Of a DNA stretch of 64,000 nt, positions 29,470 through 50,642 are shown piece after piece. Each line of letters begins with the position of its first letter. Position 1 is the first letter of the stretch. A program made the translations under genes and the position numbers. The notes beneath the pieces were generated by a model that was not told the DNA's origin, did no database searches, and saw only the letters and a program-made list of their open reading frames with translations. The stretch comes from Candidatus Omnitrophota bacterium (lineage in GTDB: Bacteria; Omnitrophota; Gorgyraeia; Zapsychrales; Zapsychraceae): assembly GCA_021108075.1 (NCBI GenBank), contig JAIORP010000090.1, positions 15,828 through 79,827 on the forward strand, in the 5' to 3' direction.

Positions 29470-30366
29470 TTAACCGCCGGCCAAACCTGCGAATGGATTA
29501 TTCTGAGTAAAGTCCAGCAAAATCGGACCAGCAACGAGAATACCAACAACTGGAAAAATAAATATCAAAAGTGGAACAAGCATTTTTATCGGAGCTTTAA
29601 GAGCTAGCTGTTCACCGCGTCGATAACGAGCGAGACGCATATCCTCTGAAAGAATGTTTAAAGCGTCAATAACAGAGGTTCCCATTTTGTCGGCTTGAAT
29701 AAGCGTTCGGGCAAATGTGGATAAATCCGGCAAATCATATCGCAAGGCCAAGTCTTTAATAGCATCACGACGTGTCTTACCCACACTAATTTCCTGCAAA
29801 ACAACGTTCAACTCTTGGATCATGATTGACGGTGGTGACTTCTCAACAACCCATTTGAGGGCCAACATAAAGTCCAGACCAGCATTAACACAAAGGGCCA
29901 ATAAGTCAATCGCGTCCGGCAAATCCTTGACAATACTTTCCTTGGCTTTTTTAATCTTTCCTTTTAAAAGGAATTCCGGAACCATGTATCCGGCAACCAG
30001 CCCGATACACAACCACATAAAGATAAAATCAGCGGATACAGATGGAAAAGTCACCAATAAAACGACGAAACCCAACAGCTCTTTGACCAAAAAGAATTCT
30101 TCCGGAGTTAAATTAACGTGGGCAATAGCCAAATCTCTTGAAACCCGACGTCTAACAGCCCCTGAACAAAACGGTTTATTGATTTTTGATAAAGTTCTGA
30201 ACAGTAAAAAAATACTGTCTCTTTTCCTCTTTTTTGTGTCTGGTTCTGTTAATCCTAAATGTAATGTCGGCCGTGACTCCCAGTCAACAGGCATGATTCC
30301 AAGGATTAAACTAAACGCGCATAAATAAACCATGATCAAAATTAACTCTAACATAATAACTCCCAA
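29470..30366 (-). CDS. tadC: TadC-like type II secretion system F-domain inner-membrane protein.
   Basis: 298 aa with multiple TM helices. The T2SSF-domain region ...LKWVVEKSPPSIMIQELNVVLQEISVGKTRRDAIKDLALRYDLPDLSTFARTLIQADKMGTSVIDALNILSEDMR... is present. It lies adjacent to a TadB-like gene. Confidence 0.75.
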   Translation of the reverse strand: MGVIMLELILIMVYLCAFSLILGIMPVDWESRPTLHLGLTEPDTKKRKRDSIFLLFRTLSKINKPFCSGAVRRRVSRDLAIAHVNLTPEEFFLVKELLGFVVLLVTFPSVSADFIFMWLCIGLVAGYMVPEFLLKGKIKKAKESIVKDLPDAIDLLALCVNAGLDFMLALKWVVEKSPPSIMIQELNVVLQEISVGKTRRDAIKDLALRYDLPDLSTFARTLIQADKMGTSVIDALNILSEDMRLARYRRGEQLALKAPIKMLVPLLIFIFPVVGILVAGPILLDFTQNNPFAGLAGG

Positions 30367-30387
30367 ATTTCTTTATTTCGCTAAAAC

Positions 30388-31245
30388 CTAAAAATCCTTG
30401 AATGAACTGATCTTGATGATAAGAAACGCACCAATTATTTCAGAAATCACCGCATAAATTAACATGGAACGCCCTAAATCCGTTGTGAACATATGCTCAA
30501 AAATACGTTTATTTGATGAATAGACAATAAAAGCAAAACCAAGCGGCAACAAGGTCATGACAACGCCCTGTAATTTACCCTGAATCGTTAATGTGGATAA
30601 ATTTTGCTGAATTTTCTTACTCTCTCGAATATTAGTAACGATACGGGAAAAAATCAATGGAAGGTTTCCCCCGGTTTCCCGCGCAAGCAAAATAGCCGTG
30701 ATCATCTGCTGTAAAGCAGCTGACGGCATGCGATTGTACAAGTGGTACAATGCGTCTTCTAATGTTACCCCCATCTTATTTTCCCCCAATACAGAACTGA
30801 ACTCTGTATTAATCGGGTTGGGCATCTCCTCAACCACAGCCTCAAAGGCCTGAATAAGGCTCAATCCACCCCGAAAAGAACTGGACATAATCATTAAAGC
30901 ATCAATTAACTGATCTTTAAACTTCTCCTTAATTTGTCTGGTCATAATCTGAATGTAAACTTTTGGAAATAAGTAACCGCCAGTTGCGCCAATAATCAAA
31001 CCAAAAACACGTAATCCTTCCGGAAAAAGGAAATAAAGGGCCGCACCGAACAAAAATGGAGCAAAAACGAAAAATCGGCTCATTTTCTTGGCCTGATTGG
31101 TCGGTAACAGTTGTTGAAAATTCGCGGAAAGATTTTTCTGGCGCTTTTCACTAATAACAGTCGCTTTTTCGTAGACCATCGGGATAACCAGATAAGCAAT
31201 AAAAAAAATCGTGGTGAACATCAAGAATAAAATAATAAATAACAT
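30388..31245 (-). CDS. tadB: TadB-like type II secretion system F-domain inner-membrane protein.
   Basis: 285 aa. Contains ...MSSSFRGGLSLIQAFEAVVEEMPNPINTEFSSVLGENKMGVTLEDALYHLYNRMPSAALQQMITAILLARETGGNLPLIFSRIV..., typical of the T2SSF/TadB family. Confidence 0.75.
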   Translation of the reverse strand: MLFIILFLMFTTIFFIAYLVIPMVYEKATVISEKRQKNLSANFQQLLPTNQAKKMSRFFVFAPFLFGAALYFLFPEGLRVFGLIIGATGGYLFPKVYIQIMTRQIKEKFKDQLIDALMIMSSSFRGGLSLIQAFEAVVEEMPNPINTEFSSVLGENKMGVTLEDALYHLYNRMPSAALQQMITAILLARETGGNLPLIFSRIVTNIRESKKIQQNLSTLTIQGKLQGVVMTLLPLGFAFIVYSSNKRIFEHMFTTDLGRSMLIYAVISEIIGAFLIIKISSFKDF

Positions 31246-31357
31246 ATCTATTTTTCCATATTAATACACTATTTTAGAGTTAGTTTAAACCTAATATTGA
31301 TAAGGATAACATGAAAAAGTCGATCAAACAAGTGATCCGGACCAAATAATTCACAGA

Positions 31358-31696
31358 TTAACTTTGACATGTCGGCGTGGCACAAAGGGCAATAATGTCC
31401 TGACAGGTTGTGGGGTCGGGGTATCCATCCGTGCGGCAATATCCTCCGTTGGCCTTGAAACATCGGTAATCATACCAACAATATGTCCAATCCTGATCAT
31501 ACACGCATTCAATGGTCTCATCTGCATCATACAGGCGTCCAAAAGCCCAAGCGGAACCGGCCTTCTTCCAACTCCCATCCATGGCCCGCACAATATATTT
31601 TTGGAAAATCAAAAAAGCCCCTAGAAGCAAAAACATCATGGCCAAGAATTCCAAAGTCGATTGCCCTTTTCGATTTCTTTTCAACATAACCCTCAC
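31358..31696 (-). CDS. Small Flp/type IV pilin-like protein with a cysteine-rich C-terminal domain (8 Cys).
   Basis: N-terminal class III signal motif RKG|QSTLEF followed by a hydrophobic stretch. The C-terminal half is ...CVYDQDWTYCWYDYRCFKANGGYCRTDGYPDPTTCQDIIALCATPTCQS. Confidence 0.65.
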   Translation of the reverse strand: MRVMLKRNRKGQSTLEFLAMMFLLLGAFLIFQKYIVRAMDGSWKKAGSAWAFGRLYDADETIECVYDQDWTYCWYDYRCFKANGGYCRTDGYPDPTTCQDIIALCATPTCQS

Positions 31697-31767
31697 GTTC
31701 TCAATCGTTTCCTTCCATAATTCAAAAGTGAATCTCCTCGCAGCAGAGCTCAGAGGAATTCACTCCA

Positions 31768-34700
31768 TTAAAAACTTAAACATTGAATAAATTTCATTCC
31801 CATGCCCTTGTTCATACCGTAATGATAATAGTATTCCATGCAAGCCTCTGTCTCAACGCCTTTTGCCAGGAATTTTGTCGCATAATCCCAACAAAGAGTG
31901 TTATCTAATGTTGGGTCAGAAGGATCATCACCAATTCGTATATAACGCCACAACATAAAGGCGTCACCATACAAGAAACCCGGACCTGCGTATGAGTTTG
32001 GATTGTTTGGTTGCGCGACATCTTGACAGGAGTTCTCCATCATATTAAAATCATTCGGATCAATGACAGGAAGTTGCCGGGTATTGATGATTCTAAAATT
32101 CCAAATTTTGGTTTCACCATCCGCGAAATAAATATCCCGGCTTTGCCGGCCCTGATCGTAACGAGAAACTCTCATTTTAATAACACCCCGTTCATCCACT
32201 AACTCATAACAACGGGTCATACCCCAGTCCTTACCATATGTACGCACACGTGGGAAAGCCCGATAAGAGCGCTGGTTTGAAGCACATGCAGCATCGCATC
32301 GCCCCGGAGTCCGCGCATCTACACGGACGATATGCCACAGGCCTTGAGATGTTGGATCTGTCGGATCAGGGGGATCTCCTTGCCAACCATAAATAACGTG
32401 ATAGGGCAAGGCCCTCTCGTCACCCGTCGCAAGATCAATGTAATATTTAATAAAATCCTGAGCCACATCATTAAGATATTCAGAAAATTCCTGGTAAGCG
32501 CGGGCTAAAATGTTGTACATATTGGTGAGCTCCGTCAGACGGTCGTTTAAAAAGCCAACCCGTTTACGCATTTTATTGATTTGATTGACAGACTGTTCTG
32601 ACGCTTCTCTGGTCAGATCAATAAACCCTTTAGCTTTAGGAATATTCTGCCCTAAATAACAATTGTCACAATTCCCGTCAATTCCGTCAAATGGAGGTGG
32701 CGGACATGGATAGGTCGCACTACAAAAACCATTCTGCCGTGTTTCCGCACAAGATCCTTGAGCAAGGATCATTCCCCGCTCTATCGCCCGCATGAAGACA
32801 GGATCCAAACAAGTACCGCCATCCAAAATATGATCGCCGGTCCAGTCACAATCATAACGTTGTGTATAAGCACAACTTGCGCCCATACACGTGGCCGTAT
32901 TCGTACAACTGTTCAAATCAATACAATCCCCCGGGTCACAAGCCGCAAGGCAGGCACAACCCAGACAATTCTGAACGGTACAACAGGGCAATGGTGTTGT
33001 TGTTGCACAAGACGGATGAGCAGGACATGCCGGACAGGCGGCCTCACAACACCCCGAACAGTCAGCCGTGCAACAGGCTAGGGGTATTGTCGTCGCACAA
33101 GACGGATGAGCAGGACATGCCGGACAGGCGGCGTCACAAGTTGTTGAACACGTGCTACAAGGAATACACGCTGGACACATAGGAACCACACAACTGGTTG
33201 GACAGGACGTATTACATCCATACGTGTTGAAGGTTGTCGGTGTTCCCGCGCACCACGTATCATCAATGACCGAACAGGTCCGATTAGCAACAATCGGATC
33301 CAAACAATCTATTCCCGGGCAATCCACCAGAGAATCAACATCTGCCGGAGAATTCTGCGTACAAACTAAATTTTGCGGACAAGTATCATATACCGTTCCA
33401 CTGCTTCCAACAGACCATGTGGGATAGACAAACGGACCCGCAAATTCCCCAAAAACAACGCCATATTTCGCATCGCCAAGATAAGTGGCATAAACAACAT
33501 CACAAAAATATGGTGCCATGGTGCAATCTTCCTGGAGCGGATTATTCGTGACATTCCCCAGCCAACATTCATTACAATCAACCCCTCCATTCGTCACCGG
33601 TGTTCCTGTATTTAAAATACCTGTGTAGCAATCATTAAAATCATTGTATACCGCCATATCCATCGGAATAAACGGCCAGTCATCATCAAAATAAGGAATA
33701 ATAGAACGCGGCAAATCCGAGCAAAGCCCTTGATAATTCCAGCAATCTGTCGCACAAAGCTCAAACTTTAAGGAATTTCCTACAACAGCCACCCCGGGGT
33801 GATGCGGTGTCCAGCCCCCATTGGTCGAGGCCGCATCCGGAGGGATCGTTGCCCCTCCGACTATATCATTCGCATTCCAATCCAAACACGCAACAAGATC
33901 CTCAAAATCTCCACGAACGCCGTTTCCATTGGAATCAAATGTCGCAATTTCCACCGCCGGAGAGTCCACTGGATCAGCAGCAGGAACACACCAAGCATCG
34001 GCAACCGGCTCTACGTGAGTAGCCCCGTAAATTTGGTGTTCAATGCGCAAGGCAACTTCCTCAATCTCCTTCATAAAAAGGACGAGCGCTCCATCATAAA
34101 TTTCACAAATCCAACAACAAGGGGGAGTCCCACTCGCAGCCGCACCAACAGTGTGATCGACACGAGGATTCCCGCAAACAGATGAATCACCCGACGCACC
34201 GCTATTGGTTCCATATTCAATCCAAACAGCGATATCCTGGTACCATTGATCAATATCTTTTGTGATAATGGCCGGTGTAGATTCAAAAGCAACTAATCCT
34301 TCGGCAATCTCTAAGAAACTGGGTAATCCATAGACCATGTCATCTAAGACATCATCCGGATAATCTTCCGGCACCCCGCGTACAGCATCAATCGACACAT
34401 ACGGCGGCGCGCTAACCCCGCACTCGCAATTTTCATACGCTGTTGGGCTTGTCGGCACCGTTTCATCTTCCAAACTTAAACAGGCGATCAAACGGTCGAA
34501 ATCAAAACCGCTCCCAGGCGTTGTTCCGGTAACAGCCGTATCCTCACCACCATGACGGGCACAACCAGTCTGATATGACCAGTGTTGGGAGCAAAATCTT
34601 TTTGCCCCTTTTTTCCAAAAACCTCTGGGCTGGTTCGTGACATCGAGTTCCGGCGGCAATGCAATCGGACCACCGGCCCCCGGGTAATTAGCATAATAAA

Positions 34701-36735
34701 CCACATAAGCATCATCTGGAATAAATCTCTGGGCACAAATGGCCTCAACAGCGAGAATATCTTGTTCCAATTCAAACCCATCGAGAGGTAGGGGATTGTT
34801 CAATGGCTCAAGATTCGGATCCGTCCGAGGATCGGTGTAAAGTGGATTAATGGCTGGCCCAAGCCCCCAAGGGTCTTGATTGGGAGGCGCAGCAGGTACT
34901 GTTGCCCCGCCAAAAGGAACAACCGATGTTGATCCAACCGTTCCGGCTGGTGGAAATACCGTTGTATGCAGCCCATCAACCTGACAACTGCGGTCATAAA
35001 CCAAACGAGCCGGATCGATAGCAACATAAAAATGCACGCCAGAAAGAGTGGGCGTCGGGATAAAGTCATATTCTAATTCTTCCGGCAATGTTGTCACCAG
35101 TGGATCACAATTAGGCGGCATAACATTCGGACAATTTCCTGTTGACCAATCAAACCAATGACAGTGTTCAGGGCGATACGTATGATCCGAATTTAAATCA
35201 TTGTTATTGACCCCCGTAGGATTCAGTGACAAATATGTTGTTTCCGTACCAACAACCACATCTTCCTGCAATAAATTCATCCCCCAATCCTGCAATTTGT
35301 AAAGAGTTGGGAAAACACCGCCACGCAGCTCACTGTTGCTGTAACTCAAAAAACGGTCGGGATTCTCAATGTAATTGGTTGCATCTTTGATGTTCCACGT
35401 CGGATCCGGTGGAATCGTCCCCGTGGGGATAAACGGTGTCAAAATTTGCGGATGAAACTGGCTGTCATCCGCATCAATAGAGACCAAATCACGGTTGACC
35501 TCTGTATTCACACCATAAAGAGAAATGATCTCATCATCTCGGCCAAGTTGCTCAAGGAAAGATAGAAAATAGTCTGCACTGGCAGGATCATTGTTGCGAT
35601 GGTTTTCAAAGTATCGATCATAGACCCATGGATAGAGCGTGTGTGAAATAGGCGTTGTGCTTGCCAGCTCGCAGGTTCCCCAAGCGCCACAATCTCCAGG
35701 AGCAGCACCAAATTGAGTACAACACTCATCCCGAATGGCCAGCACGTTATTTTCATCAGAAGGATCTGTCACAACTGCTGGCAAACAACAGGGATTACAC
35801 TCCGACCAACGCCCTGCAGCAGCCTCTGGTAAACAAGGGTGATTCGTATCCATCGCTCTTAATTGCGCATACGGATCAGGCTCATAGGATATGCGGACAG
35901 GATCATACAGCCCCCAATCGTCACCATCCTTATAAATAAACTCTTTTGTGGCGACAATAAAAATACCCACCGGTCCGGGGTCTGCTTCTCTGATATCGCG
36001 CAATCGCCAATCATAATATGCTGAAAACCGGCTGATTTCATCATTGGGAACAGCTCCGGTAAAGCCAAACAGGCGATCCCCATCCAGGTCCTTTATATCC
36101 GGAACCTTACCCTGATCTGTCACCGATGCAAATAAGGCTTTTTGCATACCCATCTCAAGGAAAGAATCCGTCATGCTCATTGTTTCCGTAATAATAGCAT
36201 TCCACATCTCTGTAAGAGACGGCTCAATAACTGTGGCCTGAATCACAACGGACGCAACAGCCAAAACAACCCCAATAACGGCAACAATAGCAGCGGCTGC
36301 CGCATAGGACGAGGTGCCATATGTACAAATGGTTAAAACCAGAGCGATAACCGCAATGACCAAAGACAAAACAGTTTTAAATAATCCAGAAGAATCACAC
36401 TTCTTTTTGCTCCCGCCCAATGTTTCTTCAACCAGCACTTGCCCATAACTGGCCATTTGTGATCCCAGTCGCGCCGCGCCTGATGTGGCCGCGACCTGAG
36501 AAACAAGCTTCCCTTTATTTAGTCGCCCCAAATTTTGAGAGGCGGCATAAAAAACAAGCGCGATGGCAATCACAAACATTAACACAATCGCAACTTGCCC
36601 TTTGTTAGAGAAACCTCGACCTCTGGGACTTATTGCCTTTTTTTCTAGAAAAGCGCTTGCTCGTTCTTTTTTTTGTGTTTCAGAAAAAAGAATAGAAGAA
36701 AATTTTTTCAACAATTTATTAACAGATTGAAACAA
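31768..36735 (-). CDS. 1,655-aa extremely cysteine-rich, Asp/Pro/Gly-rich protein with a pilin-like N-terminal segment (NKG|QVAIVLMFVIAIAL), a second TM segment and tandem CPACPAHPSCATT repeats. Candidate pilus-associated adhesin or tip protein.
   Basis: Single ORF in the track. The composition is dominated by C, D, P, G, T and N with many CxxC/CC motifs. It sits between the TadE/TadG-like pseudopilin genes and tadB. No recognisable enzyme motif was seen. Confidence 0.7.
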   Translation of the reverse strand: MFQSVNKLLKKFSSILFSETQKKERASAFLEKKAISPRGRGFSNKGQVAIVLMFVIAIALVFYAASQNLGRLNKGKLVSQVAATSGAARLGSQMASYGQVLVEETLGGSKKKCDSSGLFKTVLSLVIAVIALVLTICTYGTSSYAAAAAIVAVIGVVLAVASVVIQATVIEPSLTEMWNAIITETMSMTDSFLEMGMQKALFASVTDQGKVPDIKDLDGDRLFGFTGAVPNDEISRFSAYYDWRLRDIREADPGPVGIFIVATKEFIYKDGDDWGLYDPVRISYEPDPYAQLRAMDTNHPCLPEAAAGRWSECNPCCLPAVVTDPSDENNVLAIRDECCTQFGAAPGDCGAWGTCELASTTPISHTLYPWVYDRYFENHRNNDPASADYFLSFLEQLGRDDEIISLYGVNTEVNRDLVSIDADDSQFHPQILTPFIPTGTIPPDPTWNIKDATNYIENPDRFLSYSNSELRGGVFPTLYKLQDWGMNLLQEDVVVGTETTYLSLNPTGVNNNDLNSDHTYRPEHCHWFDWSTGNCPNVMPPNCDPLVTTLPEELEYDFIPTPTLSGVHFYVAIDPARLVYDRSCQVDGLHTTVFPPAGTVGSTSVVPFGGATVPAAPPNQDPWGLGPAINPLYTDPRTDPNLEPLNNPLPLDGFELEQDILAVEAICAQRFIPDDAYVVYYANYPGAGGPIALPPELDVTNQPRGFWKKGAKRFCSQHWSYQTGCARHGGEDTAVTGTTPGSGFDFDRLIACLSLEDETVPTSPTAYENCECGVSAPPYVSIDAVRGVPEDYPDDVLDDMVYGLPSFLEIAEGLVAFESTPAIITKDIDQWYQDIAVWIEYGTNSGASGDSSVCGNPRVDHTVGAAASGTPPCCWICEIYDGALVLFMKEIEEVALRIEHQIYGATHVEPVADAWCVPAADPVDSPAVEIATFDSNGNGVRGDFEDLVACLDWNANDIVGGATIPPDAASTNGGWTPHHPGVAVVGNSLKFELCATDCWNYQGLCSDLPRSIIPYFDDDWPFIPMDMAVYNDFNDCYTGILNTGTPVTNGGVDCNECWLGNVTNNPLQEDCTMAPYFCDVVYATYLGDAKYGVVFGEFAGPFVYPTWSVGSSGTVYDTCPQNLVCTQNSPADVDSLVDCPGIDCLDPIVANRTCSVIDDTWCAGTPTTFNTYGCNTSCPTSCVVPMCPACIPCSTCSTTCDAACPACPAHPSCATTIPLACCTADCSGCCEAACPACPAHPSCATTTPLPCCTVQNCLGCACLAACDPGDCIDLNSCTNTATCMGASCAYTQRYDCDWTGDHILDGGTCLDPVFMRAIERGMILAQGSCAETRQNGFCSATYPCPPPPFDGIDGNCDNCYLGQNIPKAKGFIDLTREASEQSVNQINKMRKRVGFLNDRLTELTNMYNILARAYQEFSEYLNDVAQDFIKYYIDLATGDERALPYHVIYGWQGDPPDPTDPTSQGLWHIVRVDARTPGRCDAACASNQRSYRAFPRVRTYGKDWGMTRCYELVDERGVIKMRVSRYDQGRQSRDIYFADGETKIWNFRIINTRQLPVIDPNDFNMMENSCQDVAQPNNPNSYAGPGFLYGDAFMLWRYIRIGDDPSDPTLDNTLCWDYATKFLAKGVETEACMEYYYHYGMNKGMGMKFIQCLSF
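33005..33132. repeat. Direct 90-bp (30-aa) tandem duplication inside the Cys-rich gene, encoding CPACPAHPSCATT(I/T)PL(A/P)CCT....
   Basis: gcacaagacggatgagcaggacatgccggacaggcggc is present at 33005 and again at 33095. Confidence 0.8.
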
Positions 36736-36758
36736 GCTTACCTCCTAAAAAAACTTCA

Positions 36759-37118
36759 TTAATAGTGTGGCGCCGTATCATCCCAGACGGCATTCATCTC
36801 TGTTGAATGGTAGAAAGAGGGATCTATTTGCCCCAGCGGGCCTCGATAATAGCTGGCAGGATCATAACCCGACAGGCACATCCCAAAAGTAAGATTCCCC
36901 AGGCATAATCCGTAATCCTCAACAACGCTTTGAACGAGCAGCCGATCATGGGCCAATCGGCGTTGAGCCAAATCAATCCCCGTCCAACGCAAGATCATTA
37001 TAATTGAATAAAACATGATAAATAATATAATCATACAAAAAGTAAATTCAATAAGAACCTGAGCAAATTTTTGATGAGTCCTTTTTTTTAGATTTCTTTT
37101 TTGCAAAACTGAAAACAC
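36759..37118 (-). CDS. TadE-like minor pilin/pseudopilin.
   Basis: N-terminus KFA|QVLIEF followed by a hydrophobic helix (TFCMIILFIMFYSIIMIL). Size is 119 aa, and it lies within the Tad locus. Confidence 0.55.
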   Translation of the reverse strand: MFSVLQKRNLKKRTHQKFAQVLIEFTFCMIILFIMFYSIIMILRWTGIDLAQRRLAHDRLLVQSVVEDYGLCLGNLTFGMCLSGYDPASYYRGPLGQIDPSFYHSTEMNAVWDDTAPHY

Positions 37119-37147
37119 GTTAATACACCTTCAGTTGAATAAAACTA

Positions 37148-38620: not shown

Positions 38621-38636
38621 GTTAATCTAAAATTGT

Positions 38637-42063: not shown

Positions 42064-42349
42064 CGCCGCTACCTTATGTGTTCAACAAATAACTTTGCCT
42101 TCACTCCTAACCTTTAAGAGTAAAAATTCAAGAAGGCTCTATCCCTTCTCAAAAAATAAACCTGAGAACGGGCCCTTCAGCAACTATAAGCTTAAAAACA
42201 CTTATAATTTACTGAAGGAGTTCAAACACCTTGTGGTGTGGAAGTTCAATTTTCAAAGATTCTCATATTATATCTGACAAATATTATGATAAAAGTATAC
42301 CATATAGAAATTACTTCTGTCAATGCTTCAGTTTTAACTAAAAATTATT

Positions 42350-44374
42350 TCAAAAATCAATAAATAACAACTTATTTTCCTGCGTCTTGATATGAGCGGC
42401 ATTAAGTCTTTGGCAGGCTTGTCGCAGTAATTTAGAATTTTCACAAACTCTTGATTCGCAAAGGTTTACGTTTACTTCATTGTCTGTCTTGCAAAATTTA
42501 CCCCGCAGGGACAACAAGGCGGCAAACGCATCTTCCCATTCTTCATTGGAAAGATATTTAAAATATAAATCTGGAAAAAATCTTTTCAATGTATATAAAA
42601 TAAGATCCTGCGCATAACTTTCAATCAAACTGATCACTCCTTGATCCATGGAAGCCATATCAAATGAAGCTTCCGGCATCTCGCAATTGTCCTCTTTTCG
42701 CCCATAGCCTACGTCTAAGTCGATCTGAGCAAAATTTCGCCAGCTACATAGATAAGAAAAAAGCACATCCTCCGTCTCTTGAGATAAATCATTCGTAATT
42801 AATGTACAGATTTCTTTATCCCTCTTTTCATTCCAAATACTAATGCCTTTTAATATAAAACTCACTTCTTCTCCGTTCTTCTCTGATATTGGAATCAATC
42901 CTTCCTTATAATAAAAAACCTCATCGTAGGCATTGTGATAAATAGCCTTAAAATCTCCCCTATTAAGCATTGCGAGTCCTTCTTGATACTGACAAACATA
43001 CGGCAGAGAAGAGCCGGGTTCTATCTGACCCTTCACATTTAAAAACATTCTGCTTTTCTGCTTGGGGTTTATTCCAATAACAACTCGCCTTTTCATCCTA
43101 GGAAAAACATCAAATGTTGCTAAAGGTTGCTGATTACTGCTGCAGATATTTATTTGCTTCACTTCTTGCGTTGAAACAGAGAAAAAAACCTTTAAAAAAG
43201 AATGGAGATGAGGGACATCGACATCTAACGAAGAAACATAAAAAACGTCCTGGTTACTGATAATATATTTTGTAACATCCTCAATTGATTTTAATAAAGT
43301 GCTTGTATTAATTGGGGGGGGAGCTGTGTGGACTGTAAATTGACTAAAATTAATGAAATATTTCGTGCCATCTACCAAGTTAAGCTCAACAAAGGCCGTT
43401 CCTAAAAAAACTTCCCTTTTACGCATTTTATATTCAAAAAGAATTTGTTCGGATATTTGTTGCTGATTAAGCGTGGCCCACTCCCGATTCAGGTCGACCT
43501 CTTTATAATTTAAAATACATTGAAATAATTCTGTCTGAGCGGAAACGAATGACATGGTGTCTTCCAGGCTATCAAGAAACACCCTTTGCTTTATGACCTT
43601 AAGCATCGTAAGCAGAGAGAGGGCATCCGGTAAATTCTTGGACCATAAACGAGACGTGCTTTGAAACAACTCTTGCCAAAAGGCACCTCGATTTAATTCC
43701 CATTCAGCAGCTCGAACAAAAACCATTCCCATGTTGGGAAAAACTGGGGACATCCTTTGTTCATATTCACGTTTTAATGTGCGAACATATTGTAAAAATT
43801 CCTGATGTTTCTTTTCACGCCAGAAAGGATTTTGTTTCGAATCCTTTAACCTCATTTTTCTATCCGGAATATGCGGTTCCTTTTTAGAAATGACGGGTAT
43901 CGCCTCTTCCCGTCTCTGTTCCAGCTCGTGTGTCCCATCCCCTTTAAACTGTTGCTCTGCCAGTAGAAGTTTATCAATTTCTTTTTTCAAGTCAGGCCTC
44001 TTCTTTATTCGGATGCTGTTCCTGTCTACGGATATATTTGAAGGTAAACTTTTAAAGAGCTGATTCTTTTTCTGTTCCGGGATAATAAACTTCAGTTCTT
44101 TTGGTGCATTCTTTTTTTGAAAACGTCTGCCGACCTGATTGCTTAATAGCGCTTTTTTGAGTATGGTATTAACAGAGGATTTGGATATTTTTATTTCAAA
44201 TTCCTTGCTCGCTAGTTCCGCTAACGCACGGCAACCGGAGGAAGGATTTTCTTTTTTAGCGTTGACAATATAGTCAACAACTTCTTTTTTTAATTTGTGA
44301 ATGACTCCCATAAATATATGATCAAAAATTTTTATTTTATAAAAATTATTAATGGTTTTATTGCATACAATCAA
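42350..44374 (-). CDS. 674-aa Lys-rich hypothetical protein with an N-terminal helix-turn-helix resembling transposase/Psq-type HTH. Function unknown; possible regulator or domesticated transposase.
   Basis: ...VDYIVNAKKENPSSGCRALAELASKEFEIKISKSSVNTILKKA... near the N-terminus. No TM segments, and no other motif I recognise. Confidence 0.4.
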   Translation of the reverse strand: MIVCNKTINNFYKIKIFDHIFMGVIHKLKKEVVDYIVNAKKENPSSGCRALAELASKEFEIKISKSSVNTILKKALLSNQVGRRFQKKNAPKELKFIIPEQKKNQLFKSLPSNISVDRNSIRIKKRPDLKKEIDKLLLAEQQFKGDGTHELEQRREEAIPVISKKEPHIPDRKMRLKDSKQNPFWREKKHQEFLQYVRTLKREYEQRMSPVFPNMGMVFVRAAEWELNRGAFWQELFQSTSRLWSKNLPDALSLLTMLKVIKQRVFLDSLEDTMSFVSAQTELFQCILNYKEVDLNREWATLNQQQISEQILFEYKMRKREVFLGTAFVELNLVDGTKYFINFSQFTVHTAPPPINTSTLLKSIEDVTKYIISNQDVFYVSSLDVDVPHLHSFLKVFFSVSTQEVKQINICSSNQQPLATFDVFPRMKRRVVIGINPKQKSRMFLNVKGQIEPGSSLPYVCQYQEGLAMLNRGDFKAIYHNAYDEVFYYKEGLIPISEKNGEEVSFILKGISIWNEKRDKEICTLITNDLSQETEDVLFSYLCSWRNFAQIDLDVGYGRKEDNCEMPEASFDMASMDQGVISLIESYAQDLILYTLKRFFPDLYFKYLSNEEWEDAFAALLSLRGKFCKTDNEVNVNLCESRVCENSKLLRQACQRLNAAHIKTQENKLLFIDF

Positions 44375-44426: not shown

Positions 44427-44768
44427 TCAAGAAATGTCTAATTCGTCATCGACTGAAACACCTTTTTGGGCTATCTTGCCACTGGGCAACTCAATACAAT
44501 AACTTGATTTTGAGTAAATACGGCTCATTCTCCACGGTTTAATGTTTTCAAGCAAGCCAACGACTTTGTGATTCTTGGAAACAAAAATCACATCAATAGC
44601 AAATCGCATAAAAAACATATGAATGGAATTGCAACGGGTGATGACCAGCCCTTCGTCGTCACTTAAAGACAATCGACTCATAAGCCCGATCAGCCGCGAA
44701 AAAAATGAATCGGCCATGCGCACATTGCTAGCAATGATACTGTTTTTCGTTTTATTCTTGACGATCAA
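44427..44768 (-). CDS. DUF192/UPF0127-like small protein.
   Basis: 113 aa with ...RLIGLMSR...ITRCNSIHMFFMRFAIDVIFVSKNHKVVGLLENIKPW...IELPSGKIAQKGVSVDDEL, matching the conserved CxxIHTfFM.fpIDvvFlD pattern of the family. Confidence 0.5.
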   Translation of the reverse strand: MIVKNKTKNSIIASNVRMADSFFSRLIGLMSRLSLSDDEGLVITRCNSIHMFFMRFAIDVIFVSKNHKVVGLLENIKPWRMSRIYSKSSYCIELPSGKIAQKGVSVDDELDIS

Positions 44769-44862
44769 AATAAACCTCCTTTAAAAACACTCTGCTAGCA
44801 ACAATCAAAAAAGGCCCTTTTCCTAAGGGCCCTTATAATAAACGAACATTGTTTCACCCGAA

Positions 44863-47046
44863 TTAATGCTTATATCCTGAAGAAAACATCTCTTTATCCA
44901 AGACAATCCCTTTTTTAGCAAACTCGTCATAAAAGGTTGGCAAATTTCCTACTGAAACAAACTCACCTACAACCTTCCCGTCGTCACTTATTCCTGTTTG
45001 ATTAAAAAGAAAAATATCCGCTAATTTCAAGTGAAACTCTTCATCAAGGTGGAGGGTTTCGGAGATACCCGTTATCTTTCTTGTCCCGTCAGAGAAACGG
45101 TTCACGTGGACAATAACATCAATGGCGCTAGCAATCATTTCATTGATAGCGCGCACAGGCAACTCAATCCCACTCAATAAAATCATGGCGTGCATACGGG
45201 TCATAACGTCTGACGTCGAATTAGCGTGTAGTGTTGTCAAAGAACCGTCGTGCCCGGTGTTCATAGCTTGTAACATGTCTAAAACCTCACCGCCGCGACA
45301 CTCACCAATAACAATTCGGTCCGGACGCATACGTAAACTGTTCGTAAACAAATCCCTAATTGTGATCTCCCCTTTACCTTCCACGTTTTTCGGGCGAGAT
45401 TCAAGACGAGCCCAATGAATCTTTTTTAGTCTTAATTCGGCCGCATCTTCAATGGTAATAATTCGTTCATCGTCTGGGATAAATTCCGAAATGATATTCA
45501 ACAGCGTGGTCTTACCCGAGCCTGTTCCACCGGAGACAATCATATTTTTACGGGCGAGAACACATGCCTGTAAAAAATCTCCCATAACCTTCGACAAACT
45601 GCTGTATCTCTCAAGAAGCTGTCTTAATTCCAAACGTTCAACACCAAATTTTCTAATTGTAATCATTGGACCATTCAATGACAGCGGGGGAATAATCGCA
45701 TTAACACGAGAACCGTCGGGTAAACGGGCATCCACCATGGGGGTTGATTCATCAATCCGGCGGCCAAGCGGGGCGATAATACGGTCAATAATGGCACGTA
45801 ATTTTTGATCAGAAATAAATCTTTTATTCGTTAAGAATATTTTTCCATTTTTTTCAACATAAATCTGATTTCGGTTATTAACCATGATATCGGTCACATC
45901 ACCATCAGCCAAAAAATCCTCCAAGGGGCCTAAGCCTAAAGCTTCATTGATGATGTCGCGCACTAATCTTCGACGTTCATCATGGGCAACAATCCGTCCT
46001 CCCGCTTCCTCCATCAACAAATTCGACACAACTTTCTCTGACAACTTCTTAACCTCTTTAACCGTCTGTTCATCTGTTAAAGCGTCCAAGCGGATCCCTT
46101 CCATATTCAATCGTTCAACCAAACGCTCATGGACCTTCTGCTTAATAGCGATAATTTCATCCTCGGCAGAAGAGAATGCCGCCTCACCAGAACCGGGCGT
46201 TTCCATTTGACGGGAAATACCAAATTTCTCCCAGAACTGACTCTGTTGTGATGTTATCCCATCAGTCGTTCTCTGCCGCTCGATATCCGTTGTTTGGACA
46301 AAAACATCTTTCGTCTTAAACAAATTAACCAATCTGAAAAAAGCATCAGAGACCTTGGATTTGGGACTGTCAATCACACAGGGAACGCCTTGGTTTAATG
46401 CCATCCCAACGGCTTTACCATCTGAAGGGATATGGCTGATAATCTCACACGTCAGAGCAGACCGGACTTCTTGCCACGCCACGCTTCCCCGGCTTTCAGA
46501 GCGGTTTAAAACGAGTTTTACCATTTTATTTGGAAATTGGAGGCTTTGAAGGACTTCCATACACCATTTGATTTGATAAACAGCTAAAATATCTGGTGTA
46601 GCGATAAGCATAATAAGGTTAGAATAATCAAAAATCGTAATGAGTGTCTCGCTAAAAGATTTTCCCGTGTCAATCACAATGTATTCATAACACTTTGCAG
46701 CATTTTTTAGAAACGGTTTAAGATTATCCGGGGATATATGTCCTATCTCTTTTGTATTTTTTACGGCAGGAATAAAATGAAATCCGCTAGAGTGAGAAAC
46801 AACGTAACTTTGTATCACTTCCGGTTCTGTTGTTTCATCAACTTGTGCAAATGAATCAGCTATCGATTTTCGAGGGGAAAGGTTAAGCATTCGGGCCATA
46901 TCTTGTCCCGCTTGAAAGTCTAAATCAATCAATAAAACTTTATAGCCTGCAAGCGCTAACGCTGTCCCTAAATTGACAGCCACAAATGTTTTACCGACAC
47001 CACCTTTATTACTAAATATAGAAATTGTTTTAGCGTTCATATACAC
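44863..47046 (-). CDS. cpaF: Fusion of a CpaE/TadZ-like MinD/ParA-family ATPase domain (N-terminal) with a CpaF/TadA secretion ATPase (C-terminal).
   Basis: N-terminus ISIFSNKGGVGKTFVAVNLGTALALAGYKVLLIDLDFQAGQD (deviant Walker A of ParA/MinD). C-terminal half has ...VSGGTGSGKTTLLN...IEDAAEL...RMRPDRIVIGECRGGEVLDMLQAMNTGHDGSLTTLHANS (VirB11/CpaF family). 727 aa. Confidence 0.8.
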   Translation of the reverse strand: MYMNAKTISIFSNKGGVGKTFVAVNLGTALALAGYKVLLIDLDFQAGQDMARMLNLSPRKSIADSFAQVDETTEPEVIQSYVVSHSSGFHFIPAVKNTKEIGHISPDNLKPFLKNAAKCYEYIVIDTGKSFSETLITIFDYSNLIMLIATPDILAVYQIKWCMEVLQSLQFPNKMVKLVLNRSESRGSVAWQEVRSALTCEIISHIPSDGKAVGMALNQGVPCVIDSPKSKVSDAFFRLVNLFKTKDVFVQTTDIERQRTTDGITSQQSQFWEKFGISRQMETPGSGEAAFSSAEDEIIAIKQKVHERLVERLNMEGIRLDALTDEQTVKEVKKLSEKVVSNLLMEEAGGRIVAHDERRRLVRDIINEALGLGPLEDFLADGDVTDIMVNNRNQIYVEKNGKIFLTNKRFISDQKLRAIIDRIIAPLGRRIDESTPMVDARLPDGSRVNAIIPPLSLNGPMITIRKFGVERLELRQLLERYSSLSKVMGDFLQACVLARKNMIVSGGTGSGKTTLLNIISEFIPDDERIITIEDAAELRLKKIHWARLESRPKNVEGKGEITIRDLFTNSLRMRPDRIVIGECRGGEVLDMLQAMNTGHDGSLTTLHANSTSDVMTRMHAMILLSGIELPVRAINEMIASAIDVIVHVNRFSDGTRKITGISETLHLDEEFHLKLADIFLFNQTGISDDGKVVGEFVSVGNLPTFYDEFAKKGIVLDKEMFSSGYKH

Positions 47047-47115: not shown

Positions 47116-48792
47116 CTAATTTTTTGCAAAATTAAAAACGACTGGTATTGTAACACTAATCTCTTGCAGCTCTGTATCAGCCGGAAACTTTTCATATGGG
47201 GCCAATTCTTTAGCAGCATCCAAAGCGGTTACATCAAAGGTTTCATAGCCAGATGATTCTTCTACCAAAGCATATGCTAGTGTACCATCGCTTAGGATGA
47301 GCAGCTCCATCTTAACGATCCCTTGCCAGCCATATTCTTGGGCTTCTGATGGGTAAGCTATCGATCCCATGATCTTTTCTTGGAGACCCTGCACATAAGA
47401 CGCCATCTCTTTTGGAATGTTCGACAAATCAACAGCCGGTGGCTGCTCGTCCATGCCTTCCTCCATGATGGGCTCTTTTACCCCGAACATATCATCAATA
47501 TATTCTTGCCGAGGAGCGCCTAGGTTCTTTTGAGAAGTTAAAATTGTCGGAACCAAGGTGATAACAAGTTCTTGATCTAGTTCTGGAACCGGGTTTGATC
47601 TATTTGTAAAGATCGTTCCAAGCAAAGGAATGCTACTCAAAAATGGAACTTTTCGTATCGTTTCACTATCATTGTGCTTAATTAAACCAGCGAGCAAGAC
47701 ATTTTGTCCGTCGTCCAACAAAAGACTTGTTTCAGCATTACGGCTCGTAAAACCAACATCATCTCCAACCTGGACAGATGCGTCAACATCGCTGACCTCA
47801 ATGTTTAATCTAATATCAATTTTGTTATTTCTAACTATCTTAGGTGTAATATTCATAGATACACCATAAGATTTGAAGGTGACATTTTCCTGAACTTGTC
47901 CGGAACTACTTGCCGTTGTTGTTCGTATCGGAATCTCGCCACCGACTAAAAATGCGGCCTGTTCCCCGCTCTTAACGACTAATTTAGGACGTGATAGAAC
48001 CCGGCCCTTCCCTTCTTCAATCAACGCGTTAATAATGGATTGCAAACCATTTTGGCGCGTAAAATCTCCGATTTTAAACCAATCACCAGGAGATCCATCA
48101 AAAGAAGGAAGTGCTTCTGCGTAATTGAAAACTAAAGTAGGGCTTGCATCGCCTGTTCCCTGCGATGCCCATGAAATACCAATATTTCTTGAAACAGTTG
48201 TGTTTAATTCAGCAATTTGCATATCGATTTGAATGAGACTCGCTTGATCTTCCTCTTCACTCAAATTTATAATTTCTTCCGAGAATGGTGCTACAATTTT
48301 ATCAAATTGCGACCGTCTATCTTCGTTAACATAACCTGTAATAATAACTTTACCTTCTTTGCCATTAATTTCTAAATTAATTGTATCAATTTGAGCTGAT
48401 TCCAATAATTTTTCAATTCGTTTTTGTACGAAATCTAAATTTTGGGTAAGGACATTAACCATTATTGTTCGTTTACCATTTTCATCCCAAATAAAAAGGG
48501 CTGTCTTTCCCATCGAACGGGAAATAAGCAAAAGGCTGACATCATCAGCATCAACAATATCAACAATTGTCGGATCAGCGATTGAAACGCGTGTCATGCT
48601 ATAGACTCTAACCGCAACCAGTTCACCAATAATCATGTTAATCTCGTCATTTTCCATTGAATCAATTAACATGCCATCATCGATGGCATCAGCATTCGTC
48701 GCTATTAAAGCTATTCCCATGACCATAACCCCTAACAATAAACCTAAACTTTTCGGCATTTGACTCATTTTTATAATTATTCTACTTAGCAT
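47116..48792 (-). CDS. cpaC: Secretin (CpaC/RcpA-like) with a C-terminal TonB_C-like domain.
   Basis: Signal-peptide-like N-terminus. Secretin core ...LVVKSGEQAAFLVGGEIPIRTTT...VTFKSYGVSMNITPKIV...SLLLDDGQNVLLAGLI...VPFLSSIPLLGTIF... The C-terminus is ...IAYPSEAQEYGWQGIVKMELLILSDGTLAYALVEESSGYETFDVTALDAAKELAPYEKFP...TIPVVFNF, matching the TonB C-terminal pattern YP..A...G.eG.V.v.f.I..dG.v....v..SSG...LD.aAl.A.....f.P....v.IpI.F. Confidence 0.75.
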   Translation of the reverse strand: MLSRIIIKMSQMPKSLGLLLGVMVMGIALIATNADAIDDGMLIDSMENDEINMIIGELVAVRVYSMTRVSIADPTIVDIVDADDVSLLLISRSMGKTALFIWDENGKRTIMVNVLTQNLDFVQKRIEKLLESAQIDTINLEINGKEGKVIITGYVNEDRRSQFDKIVAPFSEEIINLSEEEDQASLIQIDMQIAELNTTVSRNIGISWASQGTGDASPTLVFNYAEALPSFDGSPGDWFKIGDFTRQNGLQSIINALIEEGKGRVLSRPKLVVKSGEQAAFLVGGEIPIRTTTASSSGQVQENVTFKSYGVSMNITPKIVRNNKIDIRLNIEVSDVDASVQVGDDVGFTSRNAETSLLLDDGQNVLLAGLIKHNDSETIRKVPFLSSIPLLGTIFTNRSNPVPELDQELVITLVPTILTSQKNLGAPRQEYIDDMFGVKEPIMEEGMDEQPPAVDLSNIPKEMASYVQGLQEKIMGSIAYPSEAQEYGWQGIVKMELLILSDGTLAYALVEESSGYETFDVTALDAAKELAPYEKFPADTELQEISVTIPVVFNFAKN

Positions 48793-48795
48793 AAT

Positions 48796-49665
48796 TTACA
48801 ATTCTCTCCCTCCTCGAAAGATTTGAATAAAGGGTTTCCCTTCTTCCGTTTCCTCATCAATCGACGTAATAACTGGTTTCTTCTGTTTCGGTAACATTAA
48901 CTCTGTGCCCTGATGCTCTAAAACAAAATCTGCTAGGGATTCCCAGGAAGCAACTTGTAGGTTCCATGTTTCCTTTTCAGCTGGAGCTCTTAAAGATAAT
49001 TGCAATTGTCCATTCTGTTGTGCAAAGCTCATTAAACCGACTTCTTCGGGCGTAAGCGCTAGCGTAATATTCAATGATCGAGTTTTTGATTGTGCTTCGT
49101 ATTGAGGGGCTTTACCTGCCATCTGAAAATTCGTGCCAACAGCTAAGACCTGTATATTTTGAAATAAAATTGTTGTAACGGTATCCGTTTCACTCGTATC
49201 AACACCTCGACCTGGTACTTCCAGGTGAGACAAAACATCAACAAAGTCACCCGGGCTAATGAGACCGCCAACAGCTGACAACGAATCAATCATGATTGTT
49301 AAAGCCCGCTTTCCTGGAGGTGTTTTAACAGAAAATGAATTCATCTCAACAACAGGGTCTTTTTTCGGAGCTTTTCCTCCTGGTCCACCAGGCTGAGAGG
49401 GTAAATTTGCCACCATCATTTGTTGTTGTTCTTGTTTCTTTCTTAAATCTTCCTGTTGCGCAACAACTTGCCTCATTTGCTTTTTGACGAGTTCTAACTC
49501 TCCAATTAAAGCGGCATTCTTTTTTTGATAATCTTTTGCCATGTCTTTCGCTTGACCTTTAATACTAGATTGGACATAGTGGCTGGTTAAAAACGTTGCA
49601 ACCAAACCCAGGCCTATTGCAAGCGAAATAGAAGCAAATTGCTTTTTGTTCTCAATGTTCATCAT
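48796..49665 (-). CDS. cpaB: CpaB/RcpC-like Flp pilus assembly protein.
   Basis: N-terminal TM segment. Contains PPGKRALTIMIDSLSAVGGLISPGDFVDVL, characteristic of CpaB. Lies immediately upstream of the secretin with a 3-bp gap. Confidence 0.65.
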   Translation of the reverse strand: MMNIENKKQFASISLAIGLGLVATFLTSHYVQSSIKGQAKDMAKDYQKKNAALIGELELVKKQMRQVVAQQEDLRKKQEQQQMMVANLPSQPGGPGGKAPKKDPVVEMNSFSVKTPPGKRALTIMIDSLSAVGGLISPGDFVDVLSHLEVPGRGVDTSETDTVTTILFQNIQVLAVGTNFQMAGKAPQYEAQSKTRSLNITLALTPEEVGLMSFAQQNGQLQLSLRAPAEKETWNLQVASWESLADFVLEHQGTELMLPKQKKPVITSIDEETEEGKPFIQIFRGGREL

Positions 49666-49685
49666 TTTGCGTTACCTCTTTTCGT

Positions 49686-50642
49686 CTAATTTAGTAAATC
49701 TTCGTTTAAGTCAACCTTAGTTTTTTCCCTTAACGTGTCAATATGATCTATGATAATTGTCTGTTGCTTCTCAGTCAACATACGCACTTTTATATCTTGT
49801 TTAATTTCATCGAAAGGAACAACCTCTCCTCCCCGCTTTGCTTCCAGCTTAATGATGTAATAACCTTCAGGCCCTTTAAAAATGCTGCTAACCTCGCCAA
49901 CTTTCAATTTTAATATTTCTTCTCCCATCTCAAGAAAGGGCTCCCTAGTTAGAAAACCTAAATCACCACCTTTGTCTGCACTTTTTCCAACAGAGTGTTG
50001 TTTTGCCGTCTGCAAAAAACTTTCTCCCTTTAAAAGCAAAGTCAGTATTTCTGACGCCTTTAACTTGTCATTAAGGACAATTTCTCGAACCCGATATTCG
50101 ACGGGTGAAGTGAGTTTATCCATATTATCATTGTAAAAATTCAAAACATCCTTATCAGTAACTTCAATACTTTCCGTGAGCTTTCTTGCCATTTCGCGCA
50201 CAATCAACGTTCTTTCAAATTCAGTGACAGCCAATCGAATATCTCGATCTTGATCAAGGCCGATTTCTTTCGCAGATTGGACAAGAAGCTGTTGACGAAC
50301 CAATTCATCTAGGACTAATTTCCGAGCGTCCTTATTTTCAATATCATAGTCAGGAACAACTTCTTTTAAGGCAAGCAATCGTTCTTTAAATTCATCGACT
50401 GACATAGACCAATCACCAACAGTAACTAACGCATCTTCTACTGGTACTTGTGGTTTAATCGCTGCTTGTGATCCTGTGGGAGGTGTTATTTGTTTTTGAG
50501 GGGCAGGTTTTACAACGGAAGTTTCCTCTGGCGATATTGTGTCTGATGCAGATTTAACCATATCACATCCTGTTAAAACAAAATTTGTTGATAGTATAAG
50601 CGAAAAAATATAAAGAAAGATTGTAGTTTTCTTGTTTTTCAA
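49686..50642 (-). CDS. Parvulin-type peptidyl-prolyl cis-trans isomerase lipoprotein (SurA/PrsA-like).
   Basis: Lipobox LTGC near the N-terminus. PpiC domain ...AKQHSVGKSADKGGDLGFLTREPFLEMGEEILKLKVGEVSSIFKGPEGYYIIKLE. Preceded by a TATACT -10-like box and an aaaggag RBS. Confidence 0.7.
   Translation of the reverse strand: MKNKKTTIFLYIFSLILSTNFVLTGCDMVKSASDTISPEETSVVKPAPQKQITPPTGSQAAIKPQVPVEDALVTVGDWSMSVDEFKERLLALKEVVPDYDIENKDARKLVLDELVRQQLLVQSAKEIGLDQDRDIRLAVTEFERTLIVREMARKLTESIEVTDKDVLNFYNDNMDKLTSPVEYRVREIVLNDKLKASEILTLLLKGESFLQTAKQHSVGKSADKGGDLGFLTREPFLEMGEEILKLKVGEVSSIFKGPEGYYIIKLEAKRGGEVVPFDEIKQDIKVRMLTEKQQTIIIDHIDTLREKTKVDLNEDLLN

Follow-up and report, generated by a model that had tools for sequence, protein, structure and literature searches.

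The DNA analyzed here is a 64,000-nucleotide stretch of a contig from a Candidatus Omnitrophota bacterium (hereafter the window). Between positions 29470 and 50642 of its minus strand, where every long open reading frame (ORF) points in the same direction, lies a gene cluster which, judged by the domains it encodes, is a Tad-type (type IVc) pilus locus. The Tad/Flp-type assignment made in an earlier note on this DNA, which saw the core Tad parts in a single co-directional locus, holds under the profile hidden Markov model annotation that the note itself had suggested: curated profiles back RcpC/CpaB, the secretin, the ATPase, TadB, and TadC. In order of transcription, the cluster encodes a peptidyl-prolyl isomerase (PPIase), RcpC, a secretin joined to TonB_C, CpaE joined to CpaF, a DUF192 protein, a protein of 653 amino acids (aa), and pilins A-G; then come three genes at pseudopilin positions (490 aa at that of TadE, 119 aa at that of TadF, and 1,655 aa at that of TadG), pilin H, TadB, and TadC. 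Beyond tadC follow a 1.7-kb non-coding gap, a DUF1016-SNase gene, and a giant ORF.

Components of the machine

The genes for the machine and its accessories are:

49686-50642 (−): PpiC/SurA-type PPIase with lipobox LTGC, first gene of the module; Pfam Rotamase_2, 1.6e-14
48796-49665 (−): RcpC/CpaB; Pfam RcpC, 1.6e-25; NCBIfam TIGR03177 (pilus_cpaB), 105 bits against a cutoff of 71
47116-48792 (−): Tad-type secretin (RcpA/CpaC-like), 558 aa, with a C-terminal TonB_C; Pfam and NCBIfam matches
44863-47040 (−): fusion ATPase of CpaE (TadZ-like ParA/MinD) and CpaF (TadA), 725 aa, ATG start at 47040
44427-44768 (−): DUF192 protein; Pfam, 1.1e-20
42350-44311 (−): conserved 653-aa protein with a weak transposase-type helix-turn-helix (HTH) N-terminus; longest ORF 674 aa from a TTG at 44374
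30388-31245 (−): TadB, 285 aa, one T2SSF domain; Pfam, 7e-16
29470-30366 (−): TadC, 298 aa, one T2SSF domain; Pfam, 9e-13

What makes this a Tad machine? Many of the features by which Tad systems are told apart are encoded: a TadA/CpaF-type ATPase, TadB and TadC, a TadZ/CpaE partner, RcpC/CpaB, and a Tad-type secretin; two separate platform proteins, each with a single T2SSF domain, are one such criterion (PMC6668835). RcpC/CpaB exceeds both of its curated cutoffs (Pfam and NCBIfam), and the secretin matches Pfam T2SS-T3SS_pil_N (5e-10; 39 bits, cutoff 23) and Secretin (7e-40; 137 bits). Among the locus proteins, hallmarks of the type II secretion system (T2SS), namely GspC/L/M, a two-domain GspF, and G↓F-T-L-x-E signals (the arrow marks the cleavage site), found no matches, and the GspD and GspE models match at the generic family level only, far under their cutoffs. 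Such a locus is labeled T2SS-like in the part of the West-Roberts 2023 preprint available to us (bioRxiv 10.1101/2023.11.21.568195); the window tests as Tad, and the feature tests, favoring Tad (type IVc) over T2SS, argue for correcting the published label.

The ATPase is a single protein, as the earlier note had observed. Residues 6-240 form a ParA/MinD-type CpaE domain (AAA_31, CbiA, and ParA matches) and residues 370-646 a T2SSE/TadA-type ATPase (Pfam T2SSE, 3.2e-61); because the CpaE domain begins at residue 6, there is no N-terminal receiver-like domain. The top NCBIfam match is the TadA-family model TIGR03819 (2.4e-97; 326 bits, under the equivalog cutoff of 373). Could this be an ordinary Cpa/Tad cluster in which frameshifts or assembly errors have created the fusions, a scenario that the earlier note had raised against itself? 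We give this next to no credence. Four more assemblies contain exactly the same 725-aa protein (the match is exact with the ATG start; none is found with the 727-aa form starting at GTG), and more than 120 protein clusters of ~720 aa, 64-72% identical, span at least 99% of it; since the same protein recurs in this way, the fusions are not frameshift artifacts. Single-ORF fusions are also present in 16 loci of other phyla, and TonB_C is found on every visible Omnitrophota-type secretin. All source-named homologs of the ATPase fusion come from Candidatus Omnitrophica/Omnitrophota.

The TonB_C domain of the secretin, likewise seen in the earlier note, occupies residues 479-554 (Pfam, 5e-15; NCBIfam tonB_Cterm, 44 bits against a cutoff of 27). 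It recurs in all Omnitrophota-type loci that show the gene (L002, L003, L009-L013, L097, and L104; the L-numbers label the fetched contigs or loci compared with the window) and on none of the 32 secretins of other phyla; a literature search on secretin-TonB_C fusions returned nothing relevant. The PPIase is the sole lipoprotein candidate in the locus and, in the sample compared, lies directly upstream of rcpC in Omnitrophota-type loci only.

The earlier note had also placed a DUF192 protein and a 674-aa HTH protein inside the locus. The first is well supported by its profile match and keeps its position in Omnitrophota-type loci; a literature search for a link between DUF192 and pili found only unrelated work, judged by titles and abstracts. 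The second appears as 653 aa in a public assembly, and its HTH draws only sub-threshold matches (E 0.002-0.003), well under curated cutoffs. Syntenic homologs of 500-690 aa occur in Omnitrophota-type loci only, and a PDB sequence-profile search with the family gave nothing significant. A transposase-derived origin (“Y..RWPN” motif) was considered for this protein and dropped, since the family has no invariant acidic residue and the idea finds no backing from any profile.

Prepilins and the large protein at the TadG position

A pattern scan for [G/A]-Q-x3-4-E-[Y/F/L] followed by 18 hydrophobic residues, run over the six frames of the window and 50 shuffles, finds 10 occurrences, all on the minus strand from 31666 to 42024, with none elsewhere in the six frames and none in the shuffles: the prepilin signal is far beyond chance. 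The predicted leaders are short and Lys/Arg-rich, and the mature ends begin with Gln and carry Glu at +5 (+6 in one family). There are eight small pilin genes with a shared motif, as the earlier note had counted, seven of them in an array (42063 to 38679) and the eighth the Cys-rich pilin H; three larger prepilin-like proteins raise the set to 11. The genes and the signals nearest to them are:

44810-44834 (−): terminator-like hairpin, 10-bp stem, directly after the ATPase gene
42294-42323 (−): best sigma-70-like promoter match, TTGACA-18-TGnTATACT, upstream of pilin A
42127-42153 (−): terminator-like hairpin, 10-bp stem, in the 5′ leader between the promoter-like site and pilin A
41893-42063 (−): pilin A, Flp-like, candidate major pilin, 56 aa (mature 42 aa); signal G↓QHLIEY
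41623-41826 (−): pilin B, 67 aa (mature 53 aa); G↓QSTVEY
41193-41561 (−): pilin C, 122 aa; A↓QNTAEY and a hydrophobic helix; orthologs 55-58% identical
40806-41132 (−): pilin D, 108 aa; G↓QSTLEY; orthologs 59-63% identical
39412-39792 (−): pilin E, 126 aa; A↓QAMSTEY, Glu at +6
39068-39403 (−): pilin F, 111 aa; A↓QTMLEY
38679-39002 (−): pilin G, 107 aa; A↓QSVLEY
37148-38620 (−): TadE-position prepilin-like protein, 490 aa, 12 Cys, DxDxDG motifs; G↓QTALEL
36759-37118 (−): TadF-position prepilin-like protein, 119 aa; A↓QVLIEF; Pfam TadE only at E 0.52
31768-36735 (−): TadG-position protein, 1,655 aa; N-terminal G-Q and helix, two further membrane helices, Cys-containing outside domain
31358-31696 (−): pilin H, 112 aa, 7 Cys in the C-terminal half (the earlier note had counted 8); G↓QSTLEF

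Pilin B, at 28.2 bits against the Pfam Class_IIIsignal cutoff of 23.7, is the only pilin to exceed a curated model. Pilin A, with orthologs 50-70% identical, reaches 1.5e-5 against Flp_Fap (25.1 bits, under the cutoff of 32.2); the G/XXXXEY-type motif is present in pilins A-D and F-H. The promoter upstream of pilin A is a consensus match only, promoter-like sites overall not being enriched, and the hairpin in its leader could be an attenuator or a transcript-stabilizing structure. In the TadE-position family, which in our sample is likewise confined to Omnitrophota-type loci, the alignment shows D286, D288, D290, and E294 to be invariant. The 490-aa protein has no Pfam match, even in a high-E-value scan, and comparison of the family with PDB sequences brought up only EF-hand proteins (E 0.02, not significant).

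Are so many small pilins just the debris of repeated duplication? Within the window, the paralogs are alike over their first 45-65 residues only; in other genomes, each of the eight has a one-to-one ortholog in the same order. Identity across genomes is 50-70% for pilins A-D, 67-70% for the ATPase, and 33-49% for pilins E-H. By this comparison of sequences, the small pilins are not a random expansion. A tandem triplication of the C/D pair does occur in L008, with the later copies diverging chiefly in their C-terminal halves. A separate observation concerns the interval between pilins D and E, which is <200 bp in L005 and L007: in the window it is a 1-kb, AT-rich non-coding segment (39793-40810; 33% GC) in which no coding remnant was found and which resembles nothing else among the fetched sequences.

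The 1,655-aa protein contains 83 Cys residues, or 5.0%, half of the ~10% given in the earlier note. Only aa 1100-1300, which carry a duplicated ACPACPAHPSCATT motif, reach 14-22%, and the Cys-rich stretch (~aa 1015-1369) is a variable insert within the family. The family itself is large: a word-index search finds eight relatives and a 9-sequence profile adds one, while an exhaustive HMMER profile search of 1.84 billion representatives retrieves 748 at E <= 1e-3 and 341 at E <= 1e-30. Members are typically 1,000-1,700 aa long; among ten clusters sampled, the three that carry source names are all Omnitrophota hypothetical proteins. They conserve the N-terminal G-Q and hydrophobic helix, without Glu at +5, the motifs ASYGQ, DxDxDG, and ECNPCC, and ~25 invariant or near-invariant Cys residues. 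Of 58 members, 55 have three or more hydrophobic helices, all of them within the first 260 residues.

An AlphaFold2 model was obtained for a 1,128-aa ortholog, P0125, rather than for the window's own protein; a 58-sequence alignment gave a mean pLDDT of 82.7 and a pTM of 0.79 (a 10-sequence alignment had given a pLDDT of 41). The model begins with an N-terminal helix of 60 residues, continues through a membrane hairpin of low confidence and a core rich in loops, and ends, after a helix of 65 residues, in a C-terminal β domain. It implies that the N-terminus of the large protein resembles a prepilin helix but lacks the pilin globular domain. The pilin-like N-terminus described in the earlier note is thus borne out in the G-Q and the long helix, and not in the fold. 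No match to a pilin or vWA-like domain was found in the model; a PDB sequence-profile search with the family returned nothing significant, and the model has no detectable fold relative in a comparison that left the AlphaFold database aside. The modeled fold is apparently new. With its N-terminal membrane helices and without a modeled pilin domain, the large protein is probably membrane-anchored, rather than the pilus tip or cargo that the earlier note had envisaged; we prefer to call it the TadG-position protein and do not class it as TadG.

Conservation, other phyla, and chromosomal setting

Contigs for comparison were gathered by three routes: with the large protein, with the ATPase, and by a metagenome scan (7-sequence alignment). 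The genome-contig scan with the ATPase yielded only five Omnitrophota-type loci, but also 75 Tad loci of other phyla that serve as an outgroup. L013, labeled “Planctomycetales” by its submitter, is counted as Omnitrophota-type by its gene architecture and tree position.

The earlier note had presented the locus as an atypical arrangement; every related contig examined has the same order. L005-L013 and L089-L107 share with the window the ATPase fusion, DUF192, the 653-aa homolog, 7-14 pilin-motif genes, the TadE- and TadF-position genes, the large protein, pilin H, TadB, and TadC. In 14 of 14 related loci, the gene right behind that of the large protein is pilin H, and in 12 of 12 TadB-TadC come next. 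The synteny extends to the giant gene: a homolog of its N-terminus (E 1e-72 to 1e-105) is present in every locus with at least 3 kb beyond tadC (L005, L007, L008, L089, L090, L093, L096, L101, and L103), and the other contigs end just past tadC. In L009, a closer relative, the upstream gyrB-gyrA-hydrolase-mdh context is shared with the window as well. On this comparative evidence, the locus is the standard Omnitrophota arrangement and no oddity of one genome. L005 has, between the 653-aa homolog and the pilin array (L005:3042-5296), two extra genes for secreted proteins of 160 and 610 aa with a common N-terminal “LSTYYPAPSGN” motif, not found in the window.

Which features, then, are special to Omnitrophota? 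The CpaE-CpaF fusion and the DUF192 gene, both listed as departures in the earlier note, are not. A single ORF for CpaE-CpaF is found in 16 of the 75 outgroup loci, mostly from Bdellovibrionota and Elusimicrobiota, and in an unbootstrapped neighbor-joining tree of the CpaF domain the fused forms fall in adjacent clades beside a few unfused ones. DUF192 lies directly after tadC in 16 outgroup loci from Firmicutes, Chloroflexota, Acidobacteriota, Elusimicrobiota, and other phyla, which marks it as a common Tad accessory; its apparent place “inside” the Omnitrophota locus comes only from the move of tadB and tadC to the end. The G↓Q...E[Y/F] signal likewise prevails in most outgroup phyla. By contrast, pilin-motif genes number 7-14 per Omnitrophota-type locus and mostly four or fewer elsewhere, and only the Omnitrophota-type loci sampled show TonB_C fused to the secretin, a PPIase lipoprotein, the 653-aa and the large protein, and a set of 11 pilins. 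The loci of Bdellovibrionota and Elusimicrobiota come close, with a single-ORF CpaE-CpaF of 702-780 aa and G↓Q...E[Y/F] prepilins, but have tadB directly after the ATPase, in most cases fewer pilin genes, and no TonB_C secretin, PPIase, 653-aa homolog, or large-protein homolog.

A third ATPase architecture surfaced in the same survey: in Myxococcota, Kiritimatiellia, Verrucomicrobia, and Acidithiobacillus, the Tad ATPase measures 530-640 aa and has an N-terminal extension without a CpaE match and no adjoining cpaE gene (L055, L062, L064, L067, L068, L073, L074, L077-L081, L085, and L088).

The surroundings of the locus include:

2-25972 (−): giant gene, at least 8,657 codons, leaving the window; Peptidase_C39 at aa 316-396
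26879-27751 (−): DUF1016_N-SNase (nuclease-like) gene, between the Tad module and the giant gene
28275-28497 and 28507-28729: 223-nt direct repeat, 98% identical, within the 1.7-kb gap between tadC and the DUF1016-SNase gene
29162-29269 (−) and 53867-53974 (−): palindromic intergenic element of ~105 nt with terminal inverted repeats and an inner hairpin

The giant gene stands at the far end of the locus, where the earlier note had put it, its ORF starting at 25972. Apart from Peptidase_C39 and a sub-threshold TPR match, it has no Pfam content; its first 1,000 residues are the part conserved in the giant genes downstream of related Tad loci. The slot of the DUF1016_N-SNase gene varies in relatives, being taken by a radical SAM gene or a Y1 transposase, or empty. 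The gap next to tadC is an assembly break point, because the ENA contig NODE_9 ends there (~28622). No remnants of pilins or of a peptidase were found in either non-coding gap (39793-40810 and 27752-29475).

On the other side, beyond the PPIase gene, lie mdh, a CN-hydrolase gene, pspC, a tRNA gene, gyrA, gyrB, dciA, dnaN, and dnaA. The earlier note was right to place the locus near oriC: dnaA, dnaN, dciA, gyrB, and gyrA occupy 54-62 kb of the window, and dnaA is flanked by DnaA-box-like sites where the GC skew switches sign. Between the two window copies of the ~105-nt palindromic element, identity is 92.6%; the Tad locus of a relative contains a third copy (L092:3138-3243), at 76%. RNAalifold predicts 33 pairs, three with compensatory changes, and Rfam gave no match; the element looks like a miniature inverted-repeat transposable element, a repetitive extragenic palindrome, or a small structured RNA.

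Filament, secretion device, or something else?

By its gene content (PPIase, rcpC, secretin, ATPase, class-III-signal genes, two gspF-like genes, and an adjoining giant gene), the module belongs to the giant-gene-associated modules of Omnitrophota. In the accessible part of West-Roberts 2023 (bioRxiv 10.1101/2023.11.21.568195, Fig. 7A), a locus of more than 10 subunits lies immediately upstream of a giant gene; besides gspD/E/F-like genes and rcpC, it has a PPIase of the Rotamase_2 family and numerous small genes whose products carry class III signal peptides. The window matches it point by point, as far as that part of the source goes, and is a case of the same thing. Seymour et al. 2023 reported Tad complexes across Velamenicoccia, among them a complete one near the chromosome start of “Candidatus Velamenicoccus archaeovorus” LiM (CP019384.1, 12382-29832) that is expressed in co-culture, during predation on Methanosaeta; the same genome encodes a 39,678-aa giant ORF (PMC10066038). 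LiM and the window share the phylum, a Tad complex, and a giant ORF, a likeness drawn from the published description and not gene by gene. A 2026 preprint places secretion or pilus genes beside 13 of 14 giant genes and mentions TonB-domain flanks. Because of these three reports, the type of locus and its proposed role are already known, and the window is a further member; the specialized attachment or predation organelle tied to the giant gene that the earlier note had imagined agrees with the literature (PMC10066038; bioRxiv 10.1101/2023.11.21.568195). The available text of West-Roberts 2023 makes no mention of the CpaE-CpaF fusion, the TonB_C secretin, DUF192, the 653-aa protein, the orthologous pilin set, or the large-protein family. 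None of the published passages covered here seems to describe the restriction of the secretin-TonB_C fusion to this phylum, the eleven pilins with their one-to-one orthologs, the large-protein family (how big its members are, how they sit in the membrane, and their apparently new fold), or how widely CpaE-CpaF and DUF192 are distributed.

How far does the module resemble known Tad machines? Like Aggregatibacter tad and Caulobacter cpa, it has RcpC/CpaB, a secretin with T2SS-T3SS_pil_N, TadZ/CpaE, TadA/CpaF, TadB, and TadC; it also has a short, Flp-like pilin whose signal puts Glu at +5, and three genes at pseudopilin positions. Unlike them, it lacks TadV/CpaA and a pilotin or lipoprotein of the TadD/CpaO or CpaD kind (bioRxiv 10.1101/2025.11.06.686991; PMC6668835), has CpaE and CpaF fused rather than encoded by separate genes, has pilin signals of the G↓Q kind rather than G↓ATAIEY or G↓VTAIEY (L040, L054), and has eight pilin genes where one or two are the norm. 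Denise et al. 2019 (PMC6668835) trace Tad back to a system like the archaeal Epd (EppA-dependent) pili, with two platform genes and short pilins. The class III signal of pilin B recalls those pili. Epd pilins also bear Gln at +1. Differences from Epd, namely a secretin, RcpC, and a bacterial TadZ-type partner, mark the module as a Tad system of diderm bacteria rather than of archaea.

We consider it likely that the module is the Omnitrophota version of the Tad (type IVc) filament machine, and that it most likely attaches the cell to a host or prey together with the adjacent giant surface protein. From what is established for Tad systems (PMC6668835; bioRxiv 10.1101/2025.11.06.686991), we infer the following scheme. 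A prepilin peptidase encoded elsewhere would cut after Gly or Ala, leaving Gln at +1 and Glu at +5, and the CpaF motor, joined to its ParA-like partner, would polymerize the filament on the TadB/TadC platform. The main subunit would be pilin A, which is Flp-like, has a mature length of 42 aa, and comes first after the best promoter-like site, perhaps with a contribution from pilin B; pilins C-H and the TadE/TadF-like proteins would be minor or priming subunits that prime or decorate the filament, for which RcpC and the secretin would form a conduit through the periplasm and the outer membrane. More speculatively, TonB_C may anchor the secretin, either on peptidoglycan or on some partner, the PPIase, as a lipoprotein, may stand in for the missing pilotin or a chaperone, and the large Cys-containing protein, held in the inner membrane by three helices, may offer its periplasmic domain as a scaffold or adaptor. 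The filament and the giant surface protein would then, most likely, attach the cell to its host or prey.

Several points weigh against this view. The window contains, as the earlier note had remarked, no visible prepilin peptidase: neither Peptidase_A24 (TadV/CpaA) nor a polytopic TadV-like ORF was found there or in L005-L013. A pilotin (TadD/CpaO or CpaD type) had no match among the locus proteins at the thresholds used; the window and the related loci examined encode neither peptidase nor pilotin. Nine of the 11 pilin-like proteins, including those at the TadE, TadF, and TadG positions, match no Pfam or NCBIfam pilin model, and their Flp, TadE, or TadG labels come from the N-terminal motif and gene position. 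High-E-value scans of Pfam and NCBIfam likewise lent the pilin-like N-termini no backing as TadE, TadG, or Flp. The roles suggested for single pilins, TonB_C, the PPIase, and the large protein are only inferred; the accessible literature yielded no observed pilus in Omnitrophota with this module; and the strict synteny with the giant gene fits secretion as well as adhesion.

The last point makes a secretion or deployment device a serious rival, because module and giant gene are always syntenic. In such a device, a short Tad-derived pseudopilus would act as a piston and push the giant protein or exoproteins through the TonB_C secretin, as in T2SS. All related loci that are long enough do have the giant gene downstream of tadC, its N-termini are homologous, the 11 prepilin-like proteins recall the one major and four minor pseudopilins of T2SS, and the part of West-Roberts 2023 at hand reads the locus as T2SS-like. 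Yet synteny by itself is no proof that the giant protein is a substrate, and the parts are of Tad type (RcpC, two single-domain T2SSF proteins, a ParA-like partner, class-III-type signals), with no match to GspC/L/M. Moreover, the giant protein starts with a membrane anchor and has, according to the same part of that preprint, many transmembrane segments, unlike a soluble periplasmic T2SS substrate. We regard a device of this kind as rather unlikely.

Type IV filaments are functionally versatile, and some Tad-like systems of monoderm bacteria serve DNA uptake or other non-adhesive functions. Pilin A even has a weak match to the archaeal DNA-import protein CedA1 (E 0.0017; 18 bits, cutoff 100). 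But no ComEA/ComEC-like competence genes were found in the locus or the window, and the conserved partner of the module is a giant surface protein rather than DNA-processing genes; a role of this sort is very improbable here.

A bolder variant of the filament reading can be put forward tentatively, at low odds: the module may be a distinct class of Tad-derived filaments that co-evolved with giant surface proteins. A secretin tethered by TonB_C, a fixed set of 11 prepilin-like proteins, and a Cys-rich protein of ~1,000-1,700 aa with a three-helix anchor and an unseen fold would work jointly to deploy the giant protein, or to operate it, where the cell meets its host, and maturation would proceed without a peptidase or pilotin encoded in the locus.

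Omnitrophota are abundant, uncultured, ultra-small bacteria, at least one of which kills archaea. In their genomes, the Tad module and the giant gene are passed on as one unit. A large branch of Tad systems has the CpaE-CpaF fusion and DUF192 as general features. Concrete targets are offered by the parts seen only in the Omnitrophota-type loci: TonB_C on the secretin, the PPIase lipoprotein, the 653-aa protein, the eleven pilins with their orthologs, and the membrane-anchored family without a detectable fold relative.

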